NCBI GenBank assembly: GCA_965230435.1
Contig: CBDDLB010000006.1
Span: 2,591,101-2,623,100 of the forward strand
Length of the DNA stretch: 32,000 bases
From: Bacteroidales bacterium
Lineage (GTDB): Bacteria; Bacteroidota; Bacteroidia; Bacteroidales; JBDKHP01
Direction of reading: 5' to 3'
The notes beneath the pieces are model-generated. The model had not been told where the DNA came from. It saw only the letters and a program-made list of their open reading frames with translations, and made no database searches. Every line of letters starts with the position of its first letter. The stretch's first letter is position 1. Below, in pieces: positions 5,311 through 29,883 of the stretch. The position numbers and the translations under genes are program-made.

Positions 5311-8300
5311 ATGGGCCATAAAACAGCTTTCCTATCCTACAACCGTAAGGATTCATTGGCTTTTACAGCGCGGCTATATCAGTATTTGGAGGACAAGGGG
5401 TACGGTGTCTGGTTCGATTATGTGAATATTGAATCTGGGGAGAACTTCCTTATCCATATACAGAACGGTATTCGGGATGCCCAGAACTTTGTGTTCATTA
5501 TGTCGCCGGATTCGGTAGATTCCCCATATTGTATGGATGAACTCAGGTTTGCAATAGCCCATGGCAAGCGGGTTATCCCTATCACCCACATTGCGCTGAG
5601 GGGCAACCAGTACGATCTTCTCCCCAAGGAGGCGCAGCTGGCAGATTGGATACCCGCGAAGCAGGAGCAGCATGCGGAGCTTAATAGGATGCTGAAACCG
5701 CGTATCGATAATTTGGGTGTTGGGGCAGAGGAGGTAAGGCAGCTTATAGAACAGAGCAGGGAGCATGATATCGATGAGCTGGAGGTGTCTTTTGATGAGC
5801 TTACACGGGTGTTCGACAAAGAGGCTGATTTTACGCACTATCATAGTAGGCTTTTGGCACAGGCGCACAAATGGGAGCAGAGCCACAAAAGCACCCAGTT
5901 TCTGCTGGTGGGGAAGGAAAAAGAGCTGGCCCAGGATAGGTTGAGGCAGGCTGCAGGGCGCAAATTCCCGCCCTTTTTTACGGATTTACAGGCGGAATAC
6001 ATCTGCGAAAGCCGCAAAAACGGCGAGGGGATGCTTACGGATGTGTTCATAACATACTCGCGTAAGGACACGGAACTGGTTGATAGGTTCGACCGTGCCT
6101 TGCAAAAACACCTTGTAACGACTTGGCTCGATAGGCGCGATATTGAAAAGGGGCGCGAATACGACGAGGAAATACAGCATGGTATAGAGAATGCCGATAG
6201 TTTTATTTTTCTGATTTCGCCAGATGCTGTCCGGTCAGCTTGGTGCATGAAAGAATTGGCCTACGCGCAGGAACTGCAAAAGCGTGTAATACCGGTGTTG
6301 CTTAGGCCAACGGGAGATGATGCGCTGCCGGAGGCTCTTAGCAAGTCTCAGTACGAGGATCTGAGCAGGGATGTGGCCAAGGTGTCGTCCATTCTGGGTA
6401 TTCTGGGTAACGAAACGGGGTATTATTATCAGCACAAAACGCTGTTGGTGCAGGCTCTTAAGTGGAAGCGACAGAACTACAATGTTGCCATTCTTTTGCG
6501 CGGTAACCAATTGGAAAAAGCGCTGCAATGGCTCACAGCCAGCGAAAGCAGAAAAAGGCATAACCCTACGGCTGTTCAGAAACAGTTTATTGCCGAAAGT
6601 GAAGCCCGAAAAGGGCAGTTGAGCAGCGAGGTTTTTATTTCTTATAGTCGTACGGATGGGGATTTTGCACGGGAACTGAACAACCGTTTGCAATTGAACG
6701 GGCACACTACATGGTTCGATCAGGAGAGTATTCCTGCCGGGGCAAGCGATTTTTGGGAGCAGATACAGCGCGGCATTCGTGCCAGCAACAACTTTGTATT
6801 TATTATTTCGCCAGAGAGTATACTTTCTGAATACTGCAAGCAGGAGGTGGATTTTGCGCAGGGGAACGGAAAGCGAATCATTACGCTGAATTATAGGACT
6901 GCCAGTAGTGAACGCCTGAAGGAGGTTGGCCTTGCCCAGATTAATTGGATCGATTTTGAGAACAAAGCAGATCTGGGACAGCCTTTTGGCGAACTGAGCC
7001 GTAGTTTGGCTGTAGACCGTGCTTATATTGAGCAGCATACTTTCTGGGGGCTGAAGGCGCTGGAGTGGGAAGAGCACCATAGGGACAAGGGGGGCTTGCT
7101 TATGGGGGCACAGCTCGATCAGGCTCTGGCATGGCTGCGCGAGGCCAACGATGCAAAAAAGCAACCTGCACCTACGGATGTGCAGCGCCAGCTTATTGCG
7201 GAAAGCCGCAGGGAGCATCTGGTGGCCATAGCGGCAGAGAGGCGGACTAAACGGCGTTTGCAGTTGCTTCTGGTGCTTTCTGTTGCTGCGGCGGTGGTGG
7301 CTCTTTTGTTGGGGTGGTTTGCTTTTAACAAATACTTGGAGGCAGATGAGGCATTGGCCACGGCCAACCGACAGACAGAAATTGCTAATGCGGAAAAAGA
7401 ACGCAACAAAGGGCTTTTCGAAGAGGCCAATCGGCAAAAGGAAGCGGCCGATAAGCGGAAAAAGGAGGCCGAAAGGGAAAAGGCTGCTGCCGATGTTGCT
7501 CGCGATCTGGCCAAGAAGAAGGAAACACTGGCGCAGAGCCTTCTGCGGGGTACTACATCTATTCTTAAAAGCTTTTTGCCTGCTAAAGAGCAAAACATCT
7601 ATTCTTTTTTTAAGAAGCATGCCGATAGTCTGTTTAACGAAGGGAAATACCACGAAGCCTTTCAGAATTATAACATGGCCAATAATGCACCGGATAAAAG
7701 GGCTGATGGGCTGGGCGAGAGAATGAAATTGTGCGAACAGCTCTTTAGGACAAGGGAGCTGGCAGATCGGAATTTCGAACAAATGAACTATAAGGAGGCC
7801 GAGAAATATTATTTAAAACTGAAGGCGTTTGAAAAGGAAAATGCCTATGCTCAGCGTCAGTTGGCGGTAATAAATCCGCTCTACGATATGGTATATATAC
7901 AAGGGGGCACATTTAATAGAATATGCACTGATGATACCGATCAGGATACTTTGTCGGAGGATACGGATTTCTTTACAATATCATTGAGCAGTTTCAGTAT
8001 AGGCCGTTGCGAGGTTACCGTTGCTCAGTATGCTAAATTCCTGAACGAGTATGGTAGCCTGAAAGTAAAAGAAGGGCAATATAAAGGGAAAGATTTAATA
8101 GAGGTTAACTCGTGTAAGATTTTGAAAAAAGATGGGCGGTGGGTAGCGTGGGAAGATTATGAGAATTATCCAATGTGTGAAGTATCCTGGTATGGAGCTC
8201 AGGAATTCTGCAAACATTACGGATTGCTGCTTCCAACCGAGTTTCAGTGGGAATATGCAGCTTGTGGTGGTACTTTATTGCTTAATGAAGACCTGCTGCA

Positions 8301-8700
8301 GCCAATACCTTATCCTATAAGTAATAGAGCATCTTACAAAGGATTCAGGGAAAAGCTTGAAAAACATGCCGCTTTTGCATGGTACAGAAATAACTCGCAA
8401 GGAAAAGTACAGCCTGTTGGTAGGTTGCAGCCGAATGTTTTAGGTGTACATGATATGAGTGGGAATGTTTGGGAGTGGTGTTACAATGAAGATTGGGATT
8501 GGGAGCGGGATTGTATAAAAGGGGAGTTGAAAAATCCTGTAGGAATAAGAAGTAGTTATTATGGTATGGATAAAAGAAGGATTTTTCGCGGAGGGAGTTA
8601 CGATGTGGATTTATCTAGGTGGTTTATAAGACTTCGTTTAAGCTTGCAAGCTAACCGTTCGAGGTATAATCTTGGTTTTCGTGTGTGTTTTGAGCCTTAG
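5311..8700 (+). CDS. triple-TIR / single-TM / coiled-coil / FGE-sulfatase (SUMF1-type) domain protein
   Basis: 1129 aa. TIR modules are at aa 4-93 (nt 5320-5589), 243-331 (6037-6303) and 439-527 (6625-6891), with (A/V)F(L/I).Y.R.D starts and SP(D/E)...S.(Y/W)C..E(L/V) blocks. The TM helix is LQLLLVLSVAAAVVALLLGWFAF (nt 7258-7326), preceded by RRTKRR. The C-terminal FGE-sulfatase motifs are YIQGGTF, CEVTVAQYAKFL, LLPTEFQWEYAACGG, GNVWEWC, RGGSY and GFRVC (nt ~7882-8697). Confidence 0.9.
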   Translation: MGHKTAFLSYNRKDSLAFTARLYQYLEDKGYGVWFDYVNIESGENFLIHIQNGIRDAQNFVFIMSPDSVDSPYCMDELRFAIAHGKRVIPITHIALRGNQYDLLPKEAQLADWIPAKQEQHAELNRMLKPRIDNLGVGAEEVRQLIEQSREHDIDELEVSFDELTRVFDKEADFTHYHSRLLAQAHKWEQSHKSTQFLLVGKEKELAQDRLRQAAGRKFPPFFTDLQAEYICESRKNGEGMLTDVFITYSRKDTELVDRFDRALQKHLVTTWLDRRDIEKGREYDEEIQHGIENADSFIFLISPDAVRSAWCMKELAYAQELQKRVIPVLLRPTGDDALPEALSKSQYEDLSRDVAKVSSILGILGNETGYYYQHKTLLVQALKWKRQNYNVAILLRGNQLEKALQWLTASESRKRHNPTAVQKQFIAESEARKGQLSSEVFISYSRTDGDFARELNNRLQLNGHTTWFDQESIPAGASDFWEQIQRGIRASNNFVFIISPESILSEYCKQEVDFAQGNGKRIITLNYRTASSERLKEVGLAQINWIDFENKADLGQPFGELSRSLAVDRAYIEQHTFWGLKALEWEEHHRDKGGLLMGAQLDQALAWLREANDAKKQPAPTDVQRQLIAESRREHLVAIAAERRTKRRLQLLLVLSVAAAVVALLLGWFAFNKYLEADEALATANRQTEIANAEKERNKGLFEEANRQKEAADKRKKEAEREKAAADVARDLAKKKETLAQSLLRGTTSILKSFLPAKEQNIYSFFKKHADSLFNEGKYHEAFQNYNMANNAPDKRADGLGERMKLCEQLFRTRELADRNFEQMNYKEAEKYYLKLKAFEKENAYAQRQLAVINPLYDMVYIQGGTFNRICTDDTDQDTLSEDTDFFTISLSSFSIGRCEVTVAQYAKFLNEYGSLKVKEGQYKGKDLIEVNSCKILKKDGRWVAWEDYENYPMCEVSWYGAQEFCKHYGLLLPTEFQWEYAACGGTLLLNEDLLQPIPYPISNRASYKGFREKLEKHAAFAWYRNNSQGKVQPVGRLQPNVLGVHDMSGNVWEWCYNEDWDWERDCIKGELKNPVGIRSSYYGMDKRRIFRGGSYDVDLSRWFIRLRLSLQANRSRYNLGFRVCFEP

Positions 8701-8802
8701 TGACTGGAAGTTATTCTGCTGATTTTGTTTGCAAAGGTCTTCATGAGACCACTTTGCTCAATGAATAATTCCTAAAATTCCCCAAACCTTAACAGTAGTT
8801 CT

Positions 8803-10890
8803 ATGAACGTAAAAAGAAAATATGCGGTCTTCTTTCTATTTCTACTTCACTTAACTGCAATTGCACAAAAGCAGCCCTCGGTACAGTTTTTTGAAGAAAA
8901 GCAGCAATATGCCCTGGTGAACAGTAAAGGTAGGGCCGTTTCGGGTTATTATACTGCGGTTTTCGATTTTGAACATTCCCATGCTATTGTACAGAAGGGC
9001 GTGCTTTTCGGAATTATAAACCAGAGTGGGAAAGAGATAGTTCCTGTGCGTTATTCTGCGAAGGAAATTAAAGACCAATTGGCAAAACGTTTAAGAAAGA
9101 AACTTGGAGATAAGGGCGAATTCTGGCTTTATCTAGCAGAAAAACACAGGAGGGACGAAGGACGGGTGAAGGAATATTGCCGAAAGGGGTATGAAAGCGA
9201 CAGTACAGATATAGAGCGTATTTTAAGTATTGCAGAACTGGTAAGAAGGGTGGATAATGATAAGGGGCTTTCTTATTATGAAAAGGCTTACATGTTGGAC
9301 AGTACCAATAAAGAGCTTGTTCTACGAATTGCAGATATTGTTGGGAATGAAGAGAAGGAGGGAAATGATGCATTTCTTTATTATAGGAAGGCTTACCGTC
9401 TCGATAGCACCAATTTGGAGCACATACTGCAACTTGCCGATAAGGTGAAGAAAAAGGAAGAGGGTGAATTTCTTTTCTATTGCAGAAAGGCTTATGAGCG
9501 GGATAGTACAAATGCAGGGACGGTATTGAGAATTGCCGAGAAACTTACAAAGGAAAAGATGTTAAAGTCTCTTTTTTATTACAAAAAATCGTATGAACGG
9601 GATAGTTCCAATTTTGAACACGTGTTGAAGATTGCAGATGCAGTGCAGAAGCTGTGGTTTCAGTATGAATATTCGGGAGGTGAAGTGATAGATAAAGAGG
9701 CGTATTTTTATTATCGCAGGGCTTATGAATTGGACAGTAGTACAGTGGAGCATTTAATAGAGATTATAAATGGAATAATGATAAATAGAGAAAGGGCTAA
9801 TGCCTATTACAGACAAGCTTATCGGGTAGATAGCAATAATGTTGATCATGTTTTGAAGATTGCAGACTATGACTTCAATGATTGGGATAATATTGATTGT
9901 GGGCTTGAGTGTCAAAAAGGCGAATATTTGGAAGAAATATATAAGAAAGATAGCACCGATGTACGGGTTCTTTTGAAGCTGATAGAGGCTAAATATTTTT
10001 GGGCACTCGAAAAGGTTTATAAACTCGATAGTCTTAATGCAAGTCAGATAGTACAGGCACTTGATGCGTCTAAACATTGTGAGGAGTTAAATGAGGAATC
10101 TGAAGATCCTGTGACGGGCGAAATTCGAAGTGAGAATGGCGACCTGTTCATAGAGTATGCCCGAAAAGCTTATGAGCTCGATAGTGGTAATGCTGAACAT
10201 GTGCGCAAAATAGCAGCGTGTTTTAATTCCAGAACAATAAATGTAACTGGGAGAAGTAGAGAATTGCTTGAGCGTTATGTAAAAAAGGCTTATGAGCTAG
10301 ACAGTACAAATCATCAGAACCTACTGGGAATAGCAGAGGTACTAAAGCCTGTCAATGAACAACGGGCTATTGATTGGGCTGAAAAGGCATACCGTATTGA
10401 TAGTACAGATGTTTCGGTACTTCTATGGTTAGGGGATGCTTTGTGGGATGAAAGCCAGGCATTATTGTATTATAAGAAAGCAAATCAGTTGTACCATGAT
10501 ACAGCGAAATTGAGAGATAAGAGTGAATTTATTAATGACATGCTTGATTTTGAAGATCCTGTTACTGGTGAACTTTTTCGGATTGATTATTTAGGGAATA
10601 ACCTAACCTATGCATGGTCTTATAAAAGTATACGGGCGGGGTGTTTTATGAATTCCAGAGAGCGGGTATTTGGTTCTTTTGAAGAATCAATAAGGTGCTT
10701 TACTGAAGATGCTTATTTCAGGAAAGATGATAAAGGGAAATGGGGTGTGATGGATGTAAAGGGGAAGGTGTTGGTGGATTATAAATATGATAAGGTGATA
10801 GAGGTGTTGAAAGAGGGAAAAGCCAAGGTGATGGAGGGGAAACAGGCTTTTTGGATCAATAAGAAAGGGGAGCGTCTGGCTGGGATTTGA
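8803..10890 (+). CDS. secreted repeat protein: WG-type beta repeats at both ends flanking 12-13 TPR/Sel1-like helical repeats
   Basis: 695 aa with signal peptide MNVKRKYAVFFLFLLHLTAIA-QK. WG-like segments are at the N-terminus (YALVNSKGRAVSGYY...FGIINQSGKEIVPVRY) and the C-terminus (KGKWGVMDVKGKVLVDYKYD...AFWINKKGERL). The core (F/Y)Y.KAY.LDS(T/S)N.EH(V/I)L(K/R)IA occurs 12 times between nt ~9169 and 10438. Confidence 0.85.
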   Translation: MNVKRKYAVFFLFLLHLTAIAQKQPSVQFFEEKQQYALVNSKGRAVSGYYTAVFDFEHSHAIVQKGVLFGIINQSGKEIVPVRYSAKEIKDQLAKRLRKKLGDKGEFWLYLAEKHRRDEGRVKEYCRKGYESDSTDIERILSIAELVRRVDNDKGLSYYEKAYMLDSTNKELVLRIADIVGNEEKEGNDAFLYYRKAYRLDSTNLEHILQLADKVKKKEEGEFLFYCRKAYERDSTNAGTVLRIAEKLTKEKMLKSLFYYKKSYERDSSNFEHVLKIADAVQKLWFQYEYSGGEVIDKEAYFYYRRAYELDSSTVEHLIEIINGIMINRERANAYYRQAYRVDSNNVDHVLKIADYDFNDWDNIDCGLECQKGEYLEEIYKKDSTDVRVLLKLIEAKYFWALEKVYKLDSLNASQIVQALDASKHCEELNEESEDPVTGEIRSENGDLFIEYARKAYELDSGNAEHVRKIAACFNSRTINVTGRSRELLERYVKKAYELDSTNHQNLLGIAEVLKPVNEQRAIDWAEKAYRIDSTDVSVLLWLGDALWDESQALLYYKKANQLYHDTAKLRDKSEFINDMLDFEDPVTGELFRIDYLGNNLTYAWSYKSIRAGCFMNSRERVFGSFEESIRCFTEDAYFRKDDKGKWGVMDVKGKVLVDYKYDKVIEVLKEGKAKVMEGKQAFWINKKGERLAGI

Positions 10891-10927
10891 ATGCTCTGTT
10901 TTTTGGTGACTGTTCTTTTGCCTCAGA

Positions 10928-11204
10928 TTGAAAAGGCTTGCTATTTTCAGTGTCAATAGCAAGCCTTTCAATAAATCTGCTAACGAAAACGGAGCGCAGA
11001 TTTAGAAAGCACAGCAGTTCTGGAAATAGCCGTGACTGTAGCGGAAAGCCCACAGCCACGCGTGCCAGTAACACACGGTGCGGAGGCTATGGAGCGGGAG
11101 CGGAATAGACCGCCGCGCTGATGTGGAACGGCACGGGGGGCGAGGACTTGCAGCGGAAGGCGCGGAGGTGTGTTCTTGGGAAAAGGTGGTGTTGTGCTCC
11201 TAAA
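10928..11204 (+). repeat. R2 dispersed repeat, copy B (intact, including the 5' hairpin H)
   Basis: Near-identical to copy A at an exact offset of 6020 bp. Confidence 0.9.
10932..10968 (+). terminator. hairpin H (14-bp stem, 9-nt loop) 42 nt after the stop of the WG-repeat gene
   Basis: The stem is aaaggcttgctatt (10932-10945) paired with aatagcaagccttt (10955-10968). There is no strong T-run, so terminator function is inferred only. The same hairpin at 3112-3130/4929-4948 is the MITE-A target. Confidence 0.4.
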
Positions 11205-11324
11205 AAAATCATGATCTGGTTGGTTGGGGTAATGTTCTGTTATTTTTTGTGCGATGCTTTAGTAGTGAGGGAACTATAGGTGTGGCAGAACGTATGTTCT
11301 GAATATATCAGCAAACTTTGTGAA

Positions 11325-11861: not shown

Positions 11862-12662
11862 TTAGTTTGCCTGTTTTTTGGTCAGGCCGATATGCGGGTC
11901 GTGCTGTTTGCTGATTGTTTGATAGAAATGGCGGAAATTGCCGCTTTCTTTCACAACATTGCCAATAATGATAATGGCGGGCGAACTGATCTGTTCTACT
12001 TCTGCTGCTGCCTGTATTGAATCTACAGTGCCAAAAACTATTTTTTCTTCGGGTGTGGTGCCGTTCTGTATAATTGCAGTCGGTGTTTTTCCTTTGCCTT
12101 CTTTTTGTAAGATGGAAACAATCTGATCGAGTTTGTGTACGCCCATCAGAATAACCAGCGTGGCCGTTGATTTTGCTGCAACGGCAATGTCTTCGGATAG
12201 TTGGTGGTTTTTGGTTGTGCCGGTAAGCACCCAAAAGCTTTCGGAAACACCACGTGCTGTAACGGGTATGCCCAAGTGTTCGGGAACGCTTATGGCAGAT
12301 GTTATCCCGGGTATAACAGTGGTGGGGATATCGTACGATTTTGCGTGGTTGATTTCTTCGGATCCACGGCCGAACACAAACGGGTCGCCGCCTTTTAGTC
12401 GAACCACATGACCATAATACAGCGCATACTGAACAATAAGCTGGTTGATTTCTTCTTGGGTGTAAACGCATTTTCCACGGCGTTTCCCAACGTAAACCAG
12501 CACTGCGTCTTTGCGTGTGTAATTAAGTATCTCGCGGTTGGCCAAGGCATCGTAAAGGACTACATCGGCGGTTCGGAGTGTTTTTATTGCTTTTAGGGTG
12601 AGCAGATCGGGATCTCCGGGGCCTGCTCCAACTATACTTATCTTAGGTTCTATGGTTTCCAT
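11862..12662 (-). CDS. cobA: uroporphyrinogen-III C-methyltransferase (siroheme branch)
   Basis: Motifs are ISIVGAGPGDPDLLTLKA, VVLYDAL, RLKGGDPFVFGRGSEE and VIPGITSA. The start was moved to ATG 12662 (METIEPK...) because the 22-codon extension to 12728 runs through a REP-like hairpin. Confidence 0.85.
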   Translation of the reverse strand: METIEPKISIVGAGPGDPDLLTLKAIKTLRTADVVLYDALANREILNYTRKDAVLVYVGKRRGKCVYTQEEINQLIVQYALYYGHVVRLKGGDPFVFGRGSEEINHAKSYDIPTTVIPGITSAISVPEHLGIPVTARGVSESFWVLTGTTKNHQLSEDIAVAAKSTATLVILMGVHKLDQIVSILQKEGKGKTPTAIIQNGTTPEEKIVFGTVDSIQAAAEVEQISSPAIIIIGNVVKESGNFRHFYQTISKQHDPHIGLTKKQAN

Positions 12663-12734
12663 AATACAAGTTTGTGTGGGGGGGCTGTAGAGACGCGCTA
12701 CCTGCGCGCCTATAACAGGATCACCCACTAATTT

Positions 12735-14825
12735 TTAAACATGAAGCGCATGAAAAGCCTTTGCTTTCTGAACAAAACTGATGGTTTGTTCGAGATACTG
12801 CTTTGCAAAGGCTTCGCTAGGCTCGTTTTCTCTTATCTGAAGTACCAGCTCGGAGAAGCTTTTGCCGACAGATAGTTTTTCTTCGTTGCCAAACTTCTTG
12901 TCGAAGCCTTCGATGATAGAAGCGCGGGAATTGGTTTTTTGGCCTTCTGCAACCAGCAGGGCTTTTGCTGTGTTTATCTGTACCCAATAGGCGTGTGCTA
13001 TTGCATCTGCCCAGCGTTGCTCGTCGATGGCTGTTTGTGAGTTGGCTAACTTCTCTTTTCCTTCGTTGAAAAGGACAGTTACTAGGTCGATGCTTACTTT
13101 TTTGCCTGCTTTTGGACGTTTTTCGTACTGCGCATCTTTGCCCCAGTCTATTAGATCTTCTTCTTTTACTGTTGTGAGGTCTGTAAGTGGCTCAAGGAAC
13201 GTTTTGAAAAACTCCAGCCCGAAGCGCTGATAGTATTGTATGAATGTTTCGTTGTCTTTCCGTTCGGCTAAGAAATGGTTGAGCAATTGACGGACAAGTT
13301 CAGGGCCGCGTTTGCTTGGTATTTTTACAACTTTTTCTGCTAAGTGGGCTTCGCCATCGCCAACACTGCCTCCTCCTAATACTACCTGAAATGCAGGTGC
13401 AAGACCGATTGGTGTTTTTACCCCTGCGCCATGAAAACCAATATGTGCCATGTTGTGCTGTGCGCAGGAGTTAGGGCAGCCGCTTATTTTTATGGTTACT
13501 CCTTTTTCCTGTAGCAGTTGTGGGTATTCTTTTTCCAGAATGTTTTCGAGCACTTTTGCAAGACCTGTACTTGCAGAGATTCCTAAGTTACAGGTATCTG
13601 TTCCGGGGCAAGATGTTAGGTCGATAATGCTGTGATAGCCCGGTTTAACGAAGCCAAGCTTTTTTAGTTCCTGATAGAAAAATGGAAGGCGTGCTTCTGG
13701 TATGTTACGGATCTGGAAGTTCTGACGGAGTGTAAAACGGATTTCGTCGGCTCCATAATCACGGATCAGCGCGGCCAATTGTCGTACTTCTTTGGAATAA
13801 ATATCTCCCAGATGAACGCGGACACCAATGGCAACCAAGCCTTCTTGACTTTGCTGAAAGATGTTTGTGTCTTTCCATAGTTGGTAGGCCTGCTGGTCTT
13901 CGATTTCTACAGCGGCAGGCTCTTGGTTGCTGATGTTAACTTTTGTGCCGTATTTCTCCAGATCGATTGGAAATGTTTTGTGTGGCAGCGCAAGCTTTTC
14001 TTCTTCGATATAAGCTAGGAACTGTTCTACCCCAATGGCTTCTACCAAGAACTTAATACGTGCTTTTGTTTTGCTGGCACGGAAGCCGTAGCGCTCGTAT
14101 ACACGCAGTACGCTTTCTGTAAAAGGTATCAGTTGGTCTTCTTCCAAGAATTCCTTGATCAGTTTTGCTTTAATGGCAGTTGTTCCAAGTCCTCCGCCAA
14201 AGTATACTTTGAAGCCGCGTTGTACTTTGCCATCTACTTCGCGTGTTTTGGCTATGAAACCGATGTCGTGCATGTAGACCTGCCCTGTGTCGTGCTCGTT
14301 GTTCGAGAACGCTATCTTGAATTTACGGCCTAGGTCGGAAGAAATAGGCAGGCGCAAAAAGTAGTCGTTTATGGCTTGGGCATATGGCGATACGTCGAAA
14401 TCTTCGTTTGGGTCGATACCTGCTGTTTCCGAAGCTGTAAGGTTACGCACGTTGTTTCCACAGCCTTCGCGGATGGTAAGGAAGTCTTTTTCTAACTCAG
14501 CCCACATTTCAGGAATGCGGTCGAGGCTAACGAAGTGTACCTGTACACACTGGCGTGTTGTAATGTGGATACGGCCTGTTGAGTATTCGTCTGTTACATC
14601 GGCAAGGCGCAATAGCTGTGCGCTGTTGATTTTTCCGTAAGGTACTTTTATGCGCACCATCGACTGGCCTGCTTGCCGCTGACCGTAGATTCCGCGTGCT
14701 TTTTTGATGGCAACGTACTGGTCGTCGTCTATTTTGCCTTCGTTATATTCTTGTATTTTTTGCCCAAGATAGATAATGTCCTGTTCTACTACTGGATCGT
14801 TGGTTTCTATTGCGAAGCTTCTCAT
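12735..14825 (-). CDS. sir: assimilatory sulfite reductase hemoprotein (nitrite/sulfite reductase 4Fe-4S/siroheme family)
   Basis: 696 aa. The cluster-binding motifs are TSCPGTDTCNLG and ISGCPNSCAQH. It sits between cysN and cobA. No cysJ-type flavoprotein is in the operon, so a ferredoxin-type enzyme is inferred. Confidence 0.85.
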   Translation of the reverse strand: MRSFAIETNDPVVEQDIIYLGQKIQEYNEGKIDDDQYVAIKKARGIYGQRQAGQSMVRIKVPYGKINSAQLLRLADVTDEYSTGRIHITTRQCVQVHFVSLDRIPEMWAELEKDFLTIREGCGNNVRNLTASETAGIDPNEDFDVSPYAQAINDYFLRLPISSDLGRKFKIAFSNNEHDTGQVYMHDIGFIAKTREVDGKVQRGFKVYFGGGLGTTAIKAKLIKEFLEEDQLIPFTESVLRVYERYGFRASKTKARIKFLVEAIGVEQFLAYIEEEKLALPHKTFPIDLEKYGTKVNISNQEPAAVEIEDQQAYQLWKDTNIFQQSQEGLVAIGVRVHLGDIYSKEVRQLAALIRDYGADEIRFTLRQNFQIRNIPEARLPFFYQELKKLGFVKPGYHSIIDLTSCPGTDTCNLGISASTGLAKVLENILEKEYPQLLQEKGVTIKISGCPNSCAQHNMAHIGFHGAGVKTPIGLAPAFQVVLGGGSVGDGEAHLAEKVVKIPSKRGPELVRQLLNHFLAERKDNETFIQYYQRFGLEFFKTFLEPLTDLTTVKEEDLIDWGKDAQYEKRPKAGKKVSIDLVTVLFNEGKEKLANSQTAIDEQRWADAIAHAYWVQINTAKALLVAEGQKTNSRASIIEGFDKKFGNEEKLSVGKSFSELVLQIRENEPSEAFAKQYLEQTISFVQKAKAFHALHV

Positions 14826-14914
14826 TGGTTTTCTTTTAGTGCATTAGTTGAATGACTGTTGTTTAATTGATTTCGATTATCAGATATATTTTCGAGAAAC
14901 GTTTGGTAACCTGG

Positions 14915-15010
14915 CTCCCCTCCTCATTGAGGCGGGGGCGGGGGTGGTGTTTATAATTATTGGTATTATTGAACCACCCCTAATCCCCTCCTTGGAAAAA
15001 GGAGGGGAAT
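14915..15010 (+). repeat. R3 GC-hairpin repeat element, copy 1
   Basis: The sequence is cccctcctcattgaggcgggg + gggggtggtg ... AT-rich spacer ... accacccc + cccctccttggaaaaaggagggg (14985-15007). The same parts occur inverted at 31890-32000. Confidence 0.6.
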
Positions 15011-15143
15011 TGAAAAGCTTTGCTTTTCTTGGAAACCTCTGTTTTCTCTTGATTACTACGTTGAATTATGATATTCGGCAGGCATGAAATCCTATGCCAC
15101 ATGTGACTTATTTTTAAAATTTTGATTACGAATGATTCATAAT

Positions 15144-16391
15144 TTAAACTATCAGCCCAACAGCCGATGTATTATGTGTATTAGGATCAATTAAAATGAA
15201 AGAACCATTTCCTCGTGATTCATCGAATTTGTCGGGGAAAATAGCCTGTCCAAGCCGTATGCTGACAGTTGCAATTTCGTTTAGCTTTACCTCTTGAGCC
15301 TGATCTGCTTCGCCCGAGAAATCTGGATGATGAACTGCCTCTATGCTCTGTATTTTTGCCTGTACTTTATTTATTCCGTGCTGAAGTTTATATCTGCTGC
15401 CAACAGTAAGTTTTTGAGCATCTGACCAGCAGATTTTAGCTTTTATCTCTTTTAGTTGTTGTGGGGCATCCTCTTTTTTCACAATCAGGTCGCCACGGCT
15501 GATGTTTACTTCGTCTTCCAGAGTAATGGTTGCTTGTTCGTCGGCTTTTAGCACCTCTACAGATTCAGTAAACTGATCTATGGACTTAATACGTGATATG
15601 CGCCCAGAGGGAAGTACTTGTACTTCGTCGCCAACGCGTAGTTCTCCGTTTTGCAACTGACCAGAGAAACCTCTGTAGTCGCGGAATTCTTCAATCTTTG
15701 GACGCACAACATATTGAACAGGGAAACGGGCAGAGTTGATTTCGCTGCTGTGGTCGATTTCTACACCTTCCAATATTTCTAACAGGCTTTGGCCTTCGTA
15801 CCATGGTGTTTGTGCAGAATGTTTTACAACATTGTCGCCCCAGAGTGCGCTGATGGGTACGAAGTGTAGTTTTTTTGCAGGGAAACCGCTTTTGTGAGCA
15901 AGGATCTCGAAATCGCTGACGATGTTGTTGTAAGTAGTTTCATCGAAGTTTACTAAGTCGATCTTGTTGATGGCAACAATTACGTTTTTGATGCCCAAAA
16001 GCTGGGTGATGTAGAAATGACGGTAGGTTTGTTCTACGATTCCTTTGCGGGCATCTATTAGGATAATGGAGAGCGATGAGGTAGATGCACCAGTTGCCAT
16101 ATTACGGGTATATTCCACGTGTCCCGGAGTGTCGGCAATTACGAAACTGCGTTTGCGGGTAGAGAAATATATGTGTGCTACGTCGATTGTGATTCCCTGT
16201 TCGCGCTCGGCTACAAGGCCGTCGGTTGCTAGCGAAAAGTCGAGGTAGTCGAAACCATTACGTTTGCTGATTTTTTCTATTGTCTCGATTTTGTCTCTTG
16301 TTAGCGATTCTGTATCGTAAAGTAGACGCCCGATTAAGGTGCTTTTTCCATCGTCTACACTGCCTGCTGTTGCCAATTTTAGTAAATCCAT
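15144..16391 (-). CDS. cysN: sulfate adenylyltransferase subunit 1 (GTPase)
   Basis: Motifs are GSVDDGKSTLIGRLL, EREQGITIDVA, DTPGH and NKID. At 415 aa it has no fused APS-kinase domain. Confidence 0.9.
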   Translation of the reverse strand: MDLLKLATAGSVDDGKSTLIGRLLYDTESLTRDKIETIEKISKRNGFDYLDFSLATDGLVAEREQGITIDVAHIYFSTRKRSFVIADTPGHVEYTRNMATGASTSSLSIILIDARKGIVEQTYRHFYITQLLGIKNVIVAINKIDLVNFDETTYNNIVSDFEILAHKSGFPAKKLHFVPISALWGDNVVKHSAQTPWYEGQSLLEILEGVEIDHSSEINSARFPVQYVVRPKIEEFRDYRGFSGQLQNGELRVGDEVQVLPSGRISRIKSIDQFTESVEVLKADEQATITLEDEVNISRGDLIVKKEDAPQQLKEIKAKICWSDAQKLTVGSRYKLQHGINKVQAKIQSIEAVHHPDFSGEADQAQEVKLNEIATVSIRLGQAIFPDKFDESRGNGSFILIDPNTHNTSAVGLIV

Positions 16392-16621
16392 GCTGCTTTG
16401 AATTTGATTGTACGATTCCCTGTCATCCTGTTCGTAAGGATGTTAAATGCTTGTTTTTTAGAATAAAATAAGATTGAAAAATTGGGTGGGGGGATCTTTT
16501 TTAAGGATCAAAACCCGATGTCGTATTGAATGTTCTTTTGCCTTTAGCACCTGGGCCGATTAGATGGTCAGCTTTGGAAAACCGAACCAATGACCGATGA
16601 CTAAAAAAACTAATGACCACT

Positions 16622-17515
16622 CTAGAAATAACCCATCTGTTTGCGTTTTTCCATCGCATTTTCAGATCGCTTATCGTCCATACGGGCTCCACGTTCGGAG
16701 ATGTCGGAGTCTATTAGTTCCTGAACAATTTGTTCGATACTATCGGCTGTCGACTCCACAGCAGCAGTACAGGTCATATCGCCAACGGTGCGGAAACGTA
16801 CCGTTCGGTTTTCTACAGTTTCGGTTTCGTCGATATTAATAAAGTCTGAATAAGGCCACACAAAGCCATCGCGGATAAAAGTTGGTCGCTGGTGCGAGAA
16901 ATATACCGATGGAATTTCAATACCCTCTTGTTGAATGTATGTCCACACGTCAAGTTCTGTCCAGTTCGAGATTGGGAATACGCGAACATTTTGCCCTTGT
17001 TCGATTTCTCCGTTTAGGATGTTGAAGAACTCTGGGCGTTGATTTTTTTCGTCCCACTGGCCAAAGTCGTCGCGTACGGAGAAGATGCGTTCTTTGGCAC
17101 GTGCTTTTTCCTCGTCGCGACGTGCTCCGCCCATGCAGGCATCGAACTTGAATTCTTCGATTGTATCTAGTAGAGTATTGGTCTGTAGTAAATTACGGCT
17201 GGCGTATTTTCCACTCTCTTCCTGTACACGTCCTTGATCAATGCTGTCCTGTACGTAGCGTACAATTAGTTCAACACCAAGTTCTTTCACCAACCTGTCG
17301 CGAAATTCTATTGTTTCGGGAAAATTGTGTCCTGTGTCGATGTGTACCAGTGGAAATGGAATTTTCCCAGGATAAAATGCTTTTTGTGCCAAGCGGACAA
17401 TCGCTATGGAATCTTTACCGCCAGAGAATAGCAACGCAGGTCTTTCGAACTGGGCGGCAACTTCCCGCAGGATGTAAATCGATTCGGTTTCTAGTGCTTT
17501 TATGTTTGTACTCAT
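16622..17515 (-). CDS. cysD: sulfate adenylyltransferase subunit 2
   Basis: It carries the PAPS-reductase-fold motif FSGGKDS, followed by HIDTGHNFPE, and lies beside cysN. Confidence 0.9.
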   Translation of the reverse strand: MSTNIKALETESIYILREVAAQFERPALLFSGGKDSIAIVRLAQKAFYPGKIPFPLVHIDTGHNFPETIEFRDRLVKELGVELIVRYVQDSIDQGRVQEESGKYASRNLLQTNTLLDTIEEFKFDACMGGARRDEEKARAKERIFSVRDDFGQWDEKNQRPEFFNILNGEIEQGQNVRVFPISNWTELDVWTYIQQEGIEIPSVYFSHQRPTFIRDGFVWPYSDFINIDETETVENRTVRFRTVGDMTCTAAVESTADSIEQIVQELIDSDISERGARMDDKRSENAMEKRKQMGYF

Positions 17516-17604
17516 TGTTTCCTCTTGATTTATTTGGTCTTCAGTAATTGGTCGTTAGCCATTAGCCGACCTTTCAATTATTCTGTGATTCGATTATTTA
17601 ATTA

Positions 17605-18306
17605 TTACTTCGCGTGTAGGCCACATTCTTTATGCGATTGTTCCCAAGGCCAACGTCCGGCTCTAATGTCCTGACCTTCTTCAATTGGAATAGTACATGG
17701 TGCACACCCGATACTTACATAACCTCTTTTGTGCAGACTGTTCTGAGGAACTTGGTTCGTTTCTAAAAAATCGTTGAGCTCCTGAAGCGACCAGCGCGTT
17801 AGCGGGTTGTACTTGATTATCTGAAAGCGTTCGTCCCATTCAAACAAGGATACTTCGCCTCTGGCATTCGATTGAGCCGACCTAAGTCCCGTAACCCAAA
17901 CTTTAGCTCCTTGTAATGCGCGTTTCAGCGGTTCAATTTTTCTGATATTACAGCATTCCTTGCGGTTTTCTACTGAAGTGTAGAAGCTGTTGGGGCCTTT
18001 TGTTTGTAGCAATTTCTCTACTTGTGCCGCATCTGGAAAAAAGACCTGAATCTTGTTTCCGTACTTTAGTACCGTTTTGTCGAACACATCGTAGGTTTCC
18101 TGAAAAAGCCGTCCTGTGTCCAGAGTGAATACACGTACTGGCAGGTTGCCGTCGAAAATAATGTGGCTAATGGCTTGGTCTTCTTGTCCGAATGAGGTGG
18201 AGAAAGCTACTCCATCGCCGAATTCTTTGGCAAGACCTATCAGTGTTTCTGCTATGCCTGCGTCGGCGAATGTTTGTTGTAGTCGTTGTGCTGTTTCTTT
18301 ACTCAT
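17605..18306 (-). CDS. cysH: adenylylsulfate/phosphoadenylylsulfate reductase (thioredoxin-dependent; Cys pattern suggests the Fe-S APS-reductase type)
   Basis: It has the C-terminal ECGLH motif plus the cysteine pairs KECCN and GCAPC. Confidence 0.85.
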   Translation of the reverse strand: MSKETAQRLQQTFADAGIAETLIGLAKEFGDGVAFSTSFGQEDQAISHIIFDGNLPVRVFTLDTGRLFQETYDVFDKTVLKYGNKIQVFFPDAAQVEKLLQTKGPNSFYTSVENRKECCNIRKIEPLKRALQGAKVWVTGLRSAQSNARGEVSLFEWDERFQIIKYNPLTRWSLQELNDFLETNQVPQNSLHKRGYVSIGCAPCTIPIEEGQDIRAGRWPWEQSHKECGLHAK

Positions 18307-21490: not shown

Positions 21491-21859
21491 TTAAAGATAC
21501 TTGTCCAAAATCTTCTTTAATTCACGGATATGAATCGGCTTAGCAATATAATCATCACAACCCGCCTCAAGTACTTTTTTTCTGTCGTTGGCCAATGCAT
21601 AAGCCGTCTGTGCAACAATAGGCAAGTTAGGACGGAACGCTTTGATCTGCTTGGTGGCTTCGTAGCCACTAAGGATCGGCATCTTCATATCCATCAGTAC
21701 CAGACGGATTTCTCTGTTGTTCTGGCAATACTCAACAGCTTCGGCTCCATTTTTAGCGTGGAGCACCCTAAAATCTAGATTGGTAAGAAATTCCCTAAAA
21801 AACAAATAGTTAACCTCTTCGTCTTCTGCAATTAATATCGTGATTTGTTCGCTTTCCAT
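21491..21859 (-). CDS. stand-alone response-regulator receiver (CheY-like)
   Basis: 122 aa with ILIAEDEEVN, LVLMDMKMP and DDYIAKPI. Confidence 0.9.
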   Translation of the reverse strand: MESEQITILIAEDEEVNYLFFREFLTNLDFRVLHAKNGAEAVEYCQNNREIRLVLMDMKMPILSGYEATKQIKAFRPNLPIVAQTAYALANDRKKVLEAGCDDYIAKPIHIRELKKILDKYL

Positions 21860-23454: not shown

Positions 23455-23645
23455 GCTTTTTACCAACATCGTCGCGCTTTCCGCTACAAGTCCTCGCACC
23501 AAGAGCTGTTCCTCATCGCTCTGGCAGTCTATTCCGCTGCGCTACATAGCTGCCAGAACGTGTTCCACTAGCCCTTGTTGCTGTGGGCTTTCCTCTACAA
23601 TCGCGGCTGAACCCAAACGCAAACCCGTTCTATAACAGCCCCATG
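23455..23645 (-). repeat. R2 dispersed repeat, copy D (diverged)
   Basis: The reverse complement aligns with 5007-5145, for example cagccgcgattgtagaggaaagccc ... tctggcagctatgtagcgcagcggaatagactgccaga ... gcgaggacttgtagcggaaagcgcg. Confidence 0.75.
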
Positions 23646-29071: not shown

Positions 29072-29285
29072 TATTAGGAGCAGGAAGTTATCTCTCTATA
29101 AAACGACAGTCGCGCCTTCCCCTCCAAGTCCTCAGCTCCCGTGCCGTTCCACATCGCCGTGGCGGTCTATTCCGCCGAAGCTACATAGCCGCCACACCGT
29201 GTGTCACAGGCACGCGAGCTTCCGGGCTTTCCGATACAGTCGCGGCTATTTTTACGACTGAACCGCTTTTTAATACAGCCCTTTT
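29072..29285 (-). repeat. R2 dispersed repeat, copy C (diverged)
   Basis: The reverse complement aligns with copy A from tagccgcgactgtatcggaaagccc to gctcctaataa. It ends 50 nt upstream of the regulator start codon. Confidence 0.8.
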
Positions 29286-29302
29286 TTGAAATGTATATTT
29301 TT

Positions 29303-29471
29303 GATAGTACTATACATGTAATGTTCGTTCGAAATGCCCCCTATTTCCCCCTAAAGGGGGACTTAGTTACCGAATAGTCCTGAAAGGTGTGCGAATCAAT
29401 ACGATATAATTCAGGAACATTCACATTTGGGCCCTATTTCACAATAAAAGCATTACATGTATAACACTATC
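29303..29471 (+). mobile_element. MITE-A copy 2 (intact, 169 bp, carries an empty IS110 target site)
   Basis: TIRs are gatagtactatacatgtaatg and cattacatgtataacactatc. The flanking 8-mers atattttt (29295-29302) and attttttt (29472-29479) match at 7 of 8 positions. It contains ccccctaaaggggg at 29347-29360. Confidence 0.8.
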
Positions 29472-29764
29472 ATTTTTTTTATGTTGATGAAGAAATGATC
29501 TTGGCATATCAGAAATAACCACATATCGATAGCATTTGTTATCAGTACCATCGCTACGCGATTCATCGTTGGCAAAACATATTTTTACAGGGATTTACAT
29601 CCCTGCCTACAAACCTGTCACTGCTACGCAGTTCTAAAAATATAGCAAGCTCAAAAATTACTATTTACACTGGGATAGCATTACATGTGTTCTTGTCGAC
29701 ACTTACACCTCCAAGGTTTTCAAAACCTTGGAGGTGTGATGCTTCAAAAAAAGCATTTCTGAAT

Positions 29765-29883
29765 GAATAGCATTACATGCAGAACACTACCCACAATAGC
29801 ATATCCAGTACTGATACGTATACTTTTCAGAACTATTCGGTAACCAAGTCCCCCTTTAGGGGGAAATAGGGGGCATTTCAAAC
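29765..29883 (-). repeat. MITE-A-related partial or rearranged copy, inverted, with a second empty IS110 target site
   Basis: The reverse complement reads gtttgaaatgccccctatttccccctaaagggggacttggttaccgaatagttctgaaaag...gtagtgttctgcatgtaatgctattc. The target hairpin is at 29850-29863. Confidence 0.65.

Follow-up and report, generated by a model that had tools for sequence, protein, structure and literature searches.

Is a bacterial protein that joins three TIR domains to an FGE-sulfatase fold across a single membrane helix one half of a two-gene defence system, or does it belong to something broader? The question is raised by a stretch of 32,000 nucleotides (nt) from a Bacteroidales bacterium (GenBank assembly GCA_965230435.1, contig CBDDLB010000006.1, positions 2,591,101 to 2,623,100 of the forward strand), hereafter the window, in whose coordinates all positions are given unless a locus of a relative is named. 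Two adjacent open reading frames (ORFs) in it, gene 1 (the TIR protein) and gene 2 (a protein with WG and helical repeats), had been read in an initial annotation as a two-gene cassette for trans-envelope TIR signalling or defence. We find instead that gene 1 is one member of a large, apparently undescribed bacterial family that mostly stands alone, and that gene 2 appears to be a near-orphan. What is new here is the family itself, a widespread set of receptor-like membrane proteins with several TIRs each; TIR-based proteins of conflict and signalling are already known. Gene 1 runs through three modules (each a TIR with its helical linker), a transmembrane helix, a stalk helix, TPR-like helices and a non-catalytic FGE-sulfatase fold:

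5311-8700, + strand: gene 1, 1129 residues (ORF and translation)
5311-6030, + strand: module 1, TIR and helical linker, residues 1-240, conserved glutamate E77 (codon 5539-5541)
6031-6621, + strand: module 2, TIR and helical linker, residues 241-437, E315 (codon 6253-6255)
6622-7245, + strand: module 3, TIR and helical linker, residues 438-645, E512 (codon 6844-6846)
7258-7326, + strand: transmembrane helix, residues 650-672, Kyte-Doolittle hydropathy 2.7, with RRTKRR just before it
7330-7572, + strand: K/E/A-rich stalk, residues 674-754, one helix of ~80 residues in the AlphaFold2 model (helix 2-82 of the modelled fragment)
7597-7887, + strand: TPR-like helical bundle, residues ~763-859, model helices 91-187; a break in G+C content at third codon positions (GC3) falls inside it
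7885-8685, + strand: FGE-sulfatase or C-type-lectin-like fold, residues 859-1125, without the two catalytic cysteines, GC3 0.36

In Pfam, gene 1 matched TIR_2 in three stretches (E 5.4e-78) and FGE-sulfatase over residues 859-1125 (E 1.3e-38). Each TIR is trailed by a helical linker of ~70 residues, the three TIR-plus-linker modules can be aligned with one another, and the glutamate of the C..E motif is present in all three. An AlphaFold2 model of module 3 with the transmembrane helix (18-sequence alignment, predicted local distance difference test (pLDDT) 93) has a continuous helix at 187-242, so that the last linker helix runs unbroken into the membrane helix. Foldseek matched the TIR part of this model best to the TIR domains of SARM1, SPARTA, TIR-STING, TLR1/6 and AbTir, and returned no PDB match for the linker helices; animal TLR1/2/6 TIR domains were found by structure and by sequence alike. 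By hydropathy, gene 1 has no hydrophobic N-terminus and residues 650-672 are its sole hydrophobic segment, with five K/R in the 15 residues on the N-terminal side versus two on the C-terminal side. The part beyond the membrane helix was modelled (41-sequence alignment, pLDDT 85) as the ~80-residue helix, then five or six TPR-like helices, then the FGE fold.

Searches against known systems reached the TIR portion of gene 1 only. The best NCBIfam match was the Thoeris type III TIR protein ThcB4, at 116.9 bits and short of its cut-off of 220, and PADLOC-DB v2 gave TIR-portion matches with SAVED-TIR, PDC-S66 and ThsB as the best. Pfam detected no NTPase domain in gene 1, and the protein search found no orthologue above ~46% identity. 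Much of the initial annotation was thereby borne out: the coordinates of both ORFs (5311-8700 and 8803-10890), their strand and the 102-nt gap, the three TIR_2, FGE-sulfatase and WG_beta_rep calls, the single membrane helix after RRTKRR in a protein with no signal peptide, the three glutamates at exactly the codons named, and the expectation that no known defence system would be called.

Where it erred was in taking gene 1 for a singular case: 612 relatives were retrieved by the protein search, and the family occupies at least 563 loci in species-representative genomes (one genome per species). Counts of modules, transmembrane helices and glutamates were made on the best 120 of the 612 relatives. 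Three modules are present in 90 of these 120 and four to seven in 30; the transmembrane helix follows within 60 residues of the last TIR-linker module in 115/120, and no hydrophobic helix precedes the last module in any of them (0/120). The linkers share the motif H..L...A..W....LL.G..L..A..WL....P....Q..FI..S. The catalytic glutamate is retained in 116/120 first, 175/185 middle and 113/120 last modules (at least 94% at each position), and because it is conserved, the TIRs of the family probably act as enzymes rather than scaffolds. The domain after the membrane helix varies: WD40 or other propellers (the C-terminal part of most cyanobacterial members), CHASE2, dCache, LRR (P0026 and P0116), DM9, DUF5711, FGE-sulfatase (P0009 and P0049, besides gene 1), or nothing recognisable. 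Gene 1 has all four of the family's defining features, namely at least three modules, a transmembrane helix after the linker, the glutamate in each TIR and an exchangeable C-terminus.

Members come from Cytophagales (Flexithrix, Algivirga, Bernardetia), filamentous cyanobacteria, relatives of Thiomargarita and Beggiatoa, and Gemmatimonadota, and carry the database labels 'TIR domain-containing protein' or 'WD40 repeat protein'. Several paralogues per genome are common, some of them in tandem arrays. Two or three multi-TIR membrane paralogues stand head to tail in Microcoleus and Xenococcaceae (L061 1734-15264, L048 6693-16564 and L044 1-10781), as expected for diversifying receptor genes. Searches of the open-access literature (subscription journals lay outside the scope) turned up no description of this multi-TIR family or of any TIR protein from bacteria that carries an extracytoplasmic sensor, which agrees with the earlier statement that an outside-in TIR layout has no described precedent.

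Downstream of 41 of 87 family genes lies a same-strand ORF within 300 nt. Of these 41 ORFs, 40 were scanned with Pfam, and the only recurrent families were DUF4231/SLATT (four) and LSDAT_prok SLOG (three). In cyanobacterial relatives, SLOG genes (LSDAT_prok, E 5e-69) and/or DUF4231/SLATT genes with two transmembrane helices lie directly downstream, at the following loci:

L041, 10604-11347
L054, 7871-8635
L061, 15441-16202
L064, 10939-12483
L071, 11581-12993
L076
L078

Some of these SLATT genes are fused to a phage-type lysozyme, and by analogy the order of multi-TIR gene and SLOG/SLATT genes in cyanobacteria looks like a three-gene Thoeris layout. Histidine kinases also recurred as neighbours in an all-against-all clustering of six-frame ORFs, probably by chance; the other clusters from that comparison were mostly shadow ORFs within TIR genes and were set aside. 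In Algivirga pacifica (L002 13511-14710), a multi-TIR gene with a transmembrane helix and WD40 repeats is followed, 13 nt on, by a gene whose 399-residue product has several hydrophobic helices near its N-terminus and a GRAM-like domain (E 7e-5) at its C-terminus.

We consider it somewhat probable that the gene 1 product spans the membrane once as a receptor-like protein, N-terminus inside and C-terminus outside, in which a ligand would trigger TIR output. The TIRs are predicted to be cytoplasmic and the C-terminus external because of the charge rule and because CHASE2 and dCache, which are established extracytoplasmic sensor domains, follow the membrane helix in relatives. Signal-peptide-like N-termini, present in 71/114 of the closest relatives of the FGE domain versus 0/112 of the full-length multi-TIR relatives, were also counted for this orientation, which is the one first proposed for gene 1. 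TIR NADases (SARM1, AbTir, SPARTA, Thoeris ThsB) switch on when gathered into ordered assemblies. In the receptor that we propose, a ligand would be bound outside, at the head formed by the FGE and TPR-like parts, and binding would alter the oligomeric state, the clustering or the helix packing by way of the stalk and the transmembrane helix; a long outer helix of this kind would be typical of a dimeric or trimeric stalk. The TIR arrays could thereby be ordered into the head-to-tail assemblies that TIR NADases require, and would cleave nicotinamide adenine dinucleotide (NAD+), with the outcome being either NAD+ depletion or an ADP-ribose-derived signal to effectors encoded elsewhere. Candidate triggers include surface molecules of phages or competitors, glycans, danger signals released when neighbouring cells lyse, and ligands presented by gene 2. 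Filamentous and gliding bacteria would likely use such a receptor in conflict, in immunity or for regulated cell death. A constant cytoplasmic part combined with swappable ectodomains makes the receptor idea directly testable.

Several points weigh against this reading. The basis for the topology is hydropathy, the charge rule and analogy with the CHASE2 and Cache members, and the C-terminal domain found most frequently in the family, the WD40 propeller, does not belong to the classical extracytoplasmic sensors. The window ORFs scanned (ORFs below ~90 residues were incompletely covered) include no gene for an effector or signal receiver, so the effector would have to lie elsewhere in the genome or NAD+ depletion would itself be the effect; SIR2, Macro, SLOG, SLATT, cyclase, STING and STAND genes were likewise found in none of these ORFs, just as the initial annotation had said of the known TIR partners. 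The surroundings are not a recognisable defence island, with sulfate assimilation genes downstream, and among 10 neighbouring ORFs PADLOC gave only one weak match (ORF 21491-21859, - strand). Gene 1 is a compositional chimera and could for that reason be a young fusion. Finally, an experiment on any family member was not found in the open-access literature.

The same receptor mechanism might also serve a purpose other than anti-phage defence, such as sensing envelope, neighbour-cell or environmental cues in development, kin recognition or programmed cell death. The concentration of the family in filamentous cyanobacteria, Cytophagales and giant sulfur bacteria would suit such a purpose, as would the general small-molecule sensors CHASE2 and dCache among the ectodomains and the position of the locus beside housekeeping sulfate-assimilation genes. 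However, the family combines variable sensors with a constant effector part and has many paralogues per genome and tandem arrays, all of them hallmarks of conflict systems, and the SLOG/SLATT-lysozyme neighbours are cell-killing modules as in Thoeris and cyclic-oligonucleotide-based antiphage signalling systems (CBASS) (bioRxiv 10.64898/2025.12.03.692087). Defence and non-defence purposes can coexist, and we regard a purpose unrelated to phage as unlikely, if worth keeping in mind.

How gene 2 fits is a separate matter, and it involves these features:

8701-8802, + strand: intergenic spacer, 102 nt, without a terminator-like hairpin (terminator scan)
8803-10890, + strand: gene 2, 695 residues, GC3 0.37
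8803-8868, + strand: signal-like N-terminus of gene 2, MNVKRKYAVFFLFLLHLTAIAQ
Within gene 2: N-terminal WG-type repeats at residues ~30-95, Sel1/TPR-like helical repeats at ~120-575, C-terminal WG repeats at ~590-692

The signal-like N-terminus agrees with the signal peptide first assigned to gene 2. WG_beta_rep was matched at E 8.3e-10, Sel1 and TPR matches were sub-threshold only (Pfam), and a motif count of the ~33-residue helical repeats (YY.KAY.LDS.N.EH.L.IAD) gave at least 10 strict and ~13 in total. Gene 2 had no match in PADLOC-DB v2, and a word-index search recovered gene 2 itself only. An exhaustive search of 1.84 billion representatives gave 2867 matches, of which only two went beyond generic WG repeats. 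First, P0122 (407 residues) has the architecture of gene 2 with fewer helical repeats. Second, P0124 (624 residues) has a signal peptide and an FGE-sulfatase domain, followed by a WG-helical-WG module. A metagenome scan seeded with the gene-2-like module yielded a single additional locus, which encodes another copy of P0122 and has no TIR gene in its vicinity. Gene 2 is thus best classed, as far as its repeats and relatives indicate, as a lineage-specific secreted WG/Sel1-like repeat protein, a near-orphan rather than a conserved family component.

The neighbourhood survey gave no sign of the conserved co-occurrence that the initial annotation would predict: a gene-2-like ORF was found within 8 kb in 0/81 loci of gene-1 relatives (six-frame ORFs), and WG and Sel1 families are not among the recurrent downstream neighbours of family genes. 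By phmmer, a gene-2-like segment occurs in 0/120 of the closest FGE relatives and 0/120 of the multi-TIR relatives. WG repeats in the periplasmic parts of P0116, P0026 and P0084 were apparent by eye only and were discarded, with one sub-threshold Pfam match (P0116, E 0.004) and none by phmmer. Some local evidence favours a link. The FGE domain of P0124 shares 33% identity with the one in gene 1 (E 7e-35), and both ends of gene 2 align colinearly to the C-terminal part of P0124 (E 1e-13 and 2e-18), so that P0124, a single case, reads as a Rosetta-stone-type fusion of an FGE domain with a gene-2-like module. The low GC3 common to the FGE part and gene 2 suggests that these two share a history absent from the TIR part; an incoming TIRx3-transmembrane-stalk module may have joined a resident secreted FGE gene that already stood beside the WG/helical-repeat gene. 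Genes 1 and 2 are likely co-transcribed, since the gap holds no terminator-like hairpin and a hairpin with a 13-bp stem follows just after gene 2. A promoter scan stayed at chance level, its models excluding Bacteroidota-type promoters. We therefore consider a local link between genes 1 and 2 plausible, and in the periplasm gene 2 and the FGE domain may work together. How receptors of this kind may arise from secreted proteins already resident in a genome is illustrated by the mixed composition of gene 1 and by the one fusion protein.

A stronger proposal makes genes 1 and 2 an obligate two-component trans-envelope TIR defence system, in which secreted gene 2 would be the true sensor or co-receptor and would dock on the FGE domain in the periplasm. 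Same-strand order, the 102-nt gap free of a terminator-like hairpin, the hairpin right after gene 2, the common GC3 and the P0124 fusion would all accord with it, and both gene 2 and the C-terminal part of gene 1 are predicted to lie outside the cytoplasm. Against this stand the two real relatives of gene 2 in 1.84 billion and a further metagenome locus without a TIR gene, the empty neighbourhoods of all 81 loci, the absence of a gene-2-like segment from either set of 120 relatives, and fusion evidence that amounts to one protein cluster; moreover, P0009, the other FGE-type member with a readable context, has an AAA_35 ATPase gene downstream instead. On these grounds we judge an obligate pair to be improbable, and the cassette as a functional unit, central to the initial annotation, is not upheld.

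The composition of gene 1 raises a further alternative. A change-point analysis placed GC3 at 0.56 up to codon ~831 (nt ~7804) and at 0.37 beyond, with a support interval of codons 737-918 and a log-likelihood ratio of 15.8 versus a maximum of 7.1 in 500 permutations. Gene 1 could on this account be a recent accidental in-frame fusion of an incoming TIRx3-transmembrane part with a resident secreted FGE gene, with no selected function as a unit; the sharpness of the break, the IS110 element and repeats immediately upstream, and the lack of an orthologue above ~46% identity among the matches found would fit. However, the 1129-codon ORF is intact, as are the three catalytic glutamates and the FGE fold, and the order of multiple TIRs, membrane helix and FGE domain arose independently in P0009 and P0049, which suggests that the combination has been selected recurrently. 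We consider an accident of this kind very unlikely.

For the part beyond the membrane, the best Foldseek matches were FGE enzymes, TvpA, PvdO and PorK. Aligned to solved FGEs, gene 1 reads RGGSY---DVDLSRW versus the cysteine-bearing motif RGGSYLCHDSYCNRY; both members of the Cu-binding catalytic cysteine pair of SUMF1-type FGEs (LCH.SYC) are gone and the segment is shortened. Because both catalytic cysteines are missing, the domain would keep the fold without the chemistry, and it is most likely not an enzyme but a module that binds a ligand. Its closest relatives include fusions to TIR, caspase, kinase and trypsin effectors. Among these FGE-domain relatives, the Bacteroidota proteins P0307, P0329, P0358-P0360 and P0363 combine a signal-peptide-like N-terminus, a Peptidase_C14 caspase and an FGE-sulfatase domain, and resemble exported caspase-FGE fusions; other layouts are kinase-transmembrane-FGE (P0342) and PF19964-transmembrane-FGE (P0298, P0320). 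Diversification of the gene 1 FGE domain by a diversity-generating retroelement (DGR) was considered and rejected, as the window ORFs scanned contain no reverse transcriptase domain and nt 8400-8700 has no repeat within the window that could be a template. Its Pfam family name and the sulfate assimilation genes at 11862-18306 might suggest that the domain is catalytically active, as a formylglycine-generating or related oxidase linked to the adjacent sulfur-metabolism genes; this explanation is close to negligible given the lost cysteines and shortened segment, the position of the sulfur genes on the opposite strand past the flanking repeat, and the well-documented non-enzymatic uses of the fold (for example PorK/GldK and TvpA).

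The remaining features of the locus concern its mobility and its neighbours:

1412-1720: ParE toxin
about 3131-4920: IS110-family element with a frameshifted transposase (3358-4738; ORFs 3358-4242 and 4184-4738)
4921-5186, + strand: upstream copy of the flanking repeat, 266 nt, its 5' hairpin part (3089-3130) split off by the IS110 element
10907-11206, + strand: downstream copy of the flanking repeat, uninterrupted, opening with the 13-bp-stem hairpin just past the gene 2 stop
11862-18306, - strand: sulfate assimilation cluster, directly downstream of the pair

The gene pair lies between direct repeats (4921-5186 and 10941-11206) of 266 nt and 97% identity, and the IS110-family element is inserted within the 5' hairpin of the upstream copy. 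Diverged copies, 75-80% identical, are found at 29111-29282, 23466-23608 and 932-986 (all - strand). The repeat is dispersed, GC-rich and intergenic, with a core of ~170 nt that is predicted to fold into a long imperfect hairpin of 45 pairs; in a comparison of four copies, 12 of these pairs show compensatory changes. Rfam returned nothing at gathering score for the window or the flanking repeat, and only chance-level matches at E up to 1. The initial annotation had placed the pair in mobile surroundings, and this stood in part: ParE, the IS110 element, a MITE-like (miniature inverted-repeat transposable element) sequence and the direct repeats are all present, but the flanking repeats by themselves are no mark of a mobile cassette because they belong to a dispersed intergenic hairpin-repeat family. 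Recombination between them could nevertheless excise or deliver the 6-kb segment.

Other observations were made along the window. The ends of the IS110 element are joined without the transposase at 29296-29478, the MITE-like sequence, adjoining another repeat copy, and an inverted partial copy of these ends lies at 29808-29883. A tandem array at 2695-3040 holds 8.4 copies of a 41-nt unit (95% matches), and the minus-strand ORFs over it (2606-3031 and others) are probably not genes because the 41-nt period is no multiple of three. The sulfate cluster comprises a sirohaem-type methylase, sulfite reductase, a CysN-like GTPase and two PAPS-reductase-family genes. ORF 21491-21859 (- strand, 122 residues) matched PD-T4-6 (E 1.2e-5) and PDC-M60B (E 1.3e-4), and adjoins CHAP and DUF6688 genes.

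Set beside known systems, the receptor-like family shares parts with several. The NADases SARM1, AbTir and SPARTA are among the best structural matches of the gene 1 TIR and have a glutamate at the equivalent position; they differ in carrying regulatory parts of their own (ARM/SAM domains, a coiled coil, Argonaute), and none is a transmembrane receptor. PorK/GldK of Bacteroidota and the DGR target TvpA have an FGE fold outside the cytoplasm without FGE chemistry, as is proposed for gene 1. PorK and GldK, however, are lipoproteins of the type IX secretion ring, and gene 1 resembles them only distantly (E ~1e-7), at a score well short of the family cut-off.

In multicellular bacteria, FGE-fold (FGS) domains have been described in a sensor role, joined in one protein to TIR, caspase, kinase or trypsin effectors (Kaur et al., eLife 2020 and 2021; PMC7159879, PMC8195603), and the conflict systems that contain them as intracellular, regulated by STAND or MoxR-vWA NTPases and often DGR-diversified (PMC7159879, PMC8195603); for Thiohalocapsa, DGR targets with a lectin fold have been predicted to lie in the periplasm (PMC10907252). 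Gene 1 resembles these systems in coupling a C-terminal FGE fold to an N-terminal effector, and its family in the preference for multicellular bacteria. It differs in having a transmembrane helix and an FGE domain predicted to lie outside, in the lack of an NTPase in gene 1 or adjacent ORFs, and in the lack of a reverse transcriptase in the window ORFs scanned and of a template repeat in the window.

In Thoeris types III and VII, a nucleotide made by the TIR protein activates a SLOG or SLATT effector (bioRxiv 10.64898/2025.12.03.692087). Type III combines several TIR proteins with a SLOG effector, and type VII pairs TIR with a SLATT effector. The likeness to our family extends to TIRs with the catalytic glutamate, to ThcB4 as the best NCBIfam match of gene 1 and to the SLOG/SLATT genes behind some cyanobacterial relatives. 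However, Thoeris TIR proteins are soluble cytoplasmic sensors with the effector gene adjacent, whereas gene 1 has three TIRs in a single chain that is anchored in the membrane and continues into a domain predicted to be extracytoplasmic; the window has no effector gene, gene 1 falls below the ThcB4 cut-off, and ThsB models match at the level of the TIR domain only.

The closest resemblance in layout is to Toll-like receptors, which also combine a ligand-binding ectodomain, one transmembrane helix and a cytoplasmic TIR, with LRR ectodomains recurring in P0026 and P0116. Here too there are differences: in the bacterial family the TIRs are N-terminal, in a type II orientation, and number three to seven versus one, the catalytic glutamate is kept, and homology is restricted to the TIR fold. 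The resemblance thus appears to be one of logic, by analogy, and not of membership. To our knowledge, almost all characterised bacterial immune sensors, Thoeris TIR proteins included, sense intracellular events. We put forward only tentatively, and with the balance leaning against it, the fullest version of the proposal, in which the family would be a bacterial counterpart of Toll-like receptors that converts a threat or a neighbour's danger signal from outside into NAD+ cleavage or a nucleotide signal, with gene 2 recruited at this locus as a periplasmic co-receptor. Exchangeable recognition domains outside (LRR, beta-propeller, FGE/lectin fold, Cache, CHASE2, DM9) would on this view be coupled by the one membrane helix to an array of three TIR NADases. 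If true, outside-in TIR immunity would be seen in bacteria for the first time; some bacteria, mainly filamentous and gliding ones with many paralogues, would sense threats at or beyond the envelope, in a prokaryotic parallel to the ectodomain, transmembrane helix and TIR layout of the animal Toll-like receptors.

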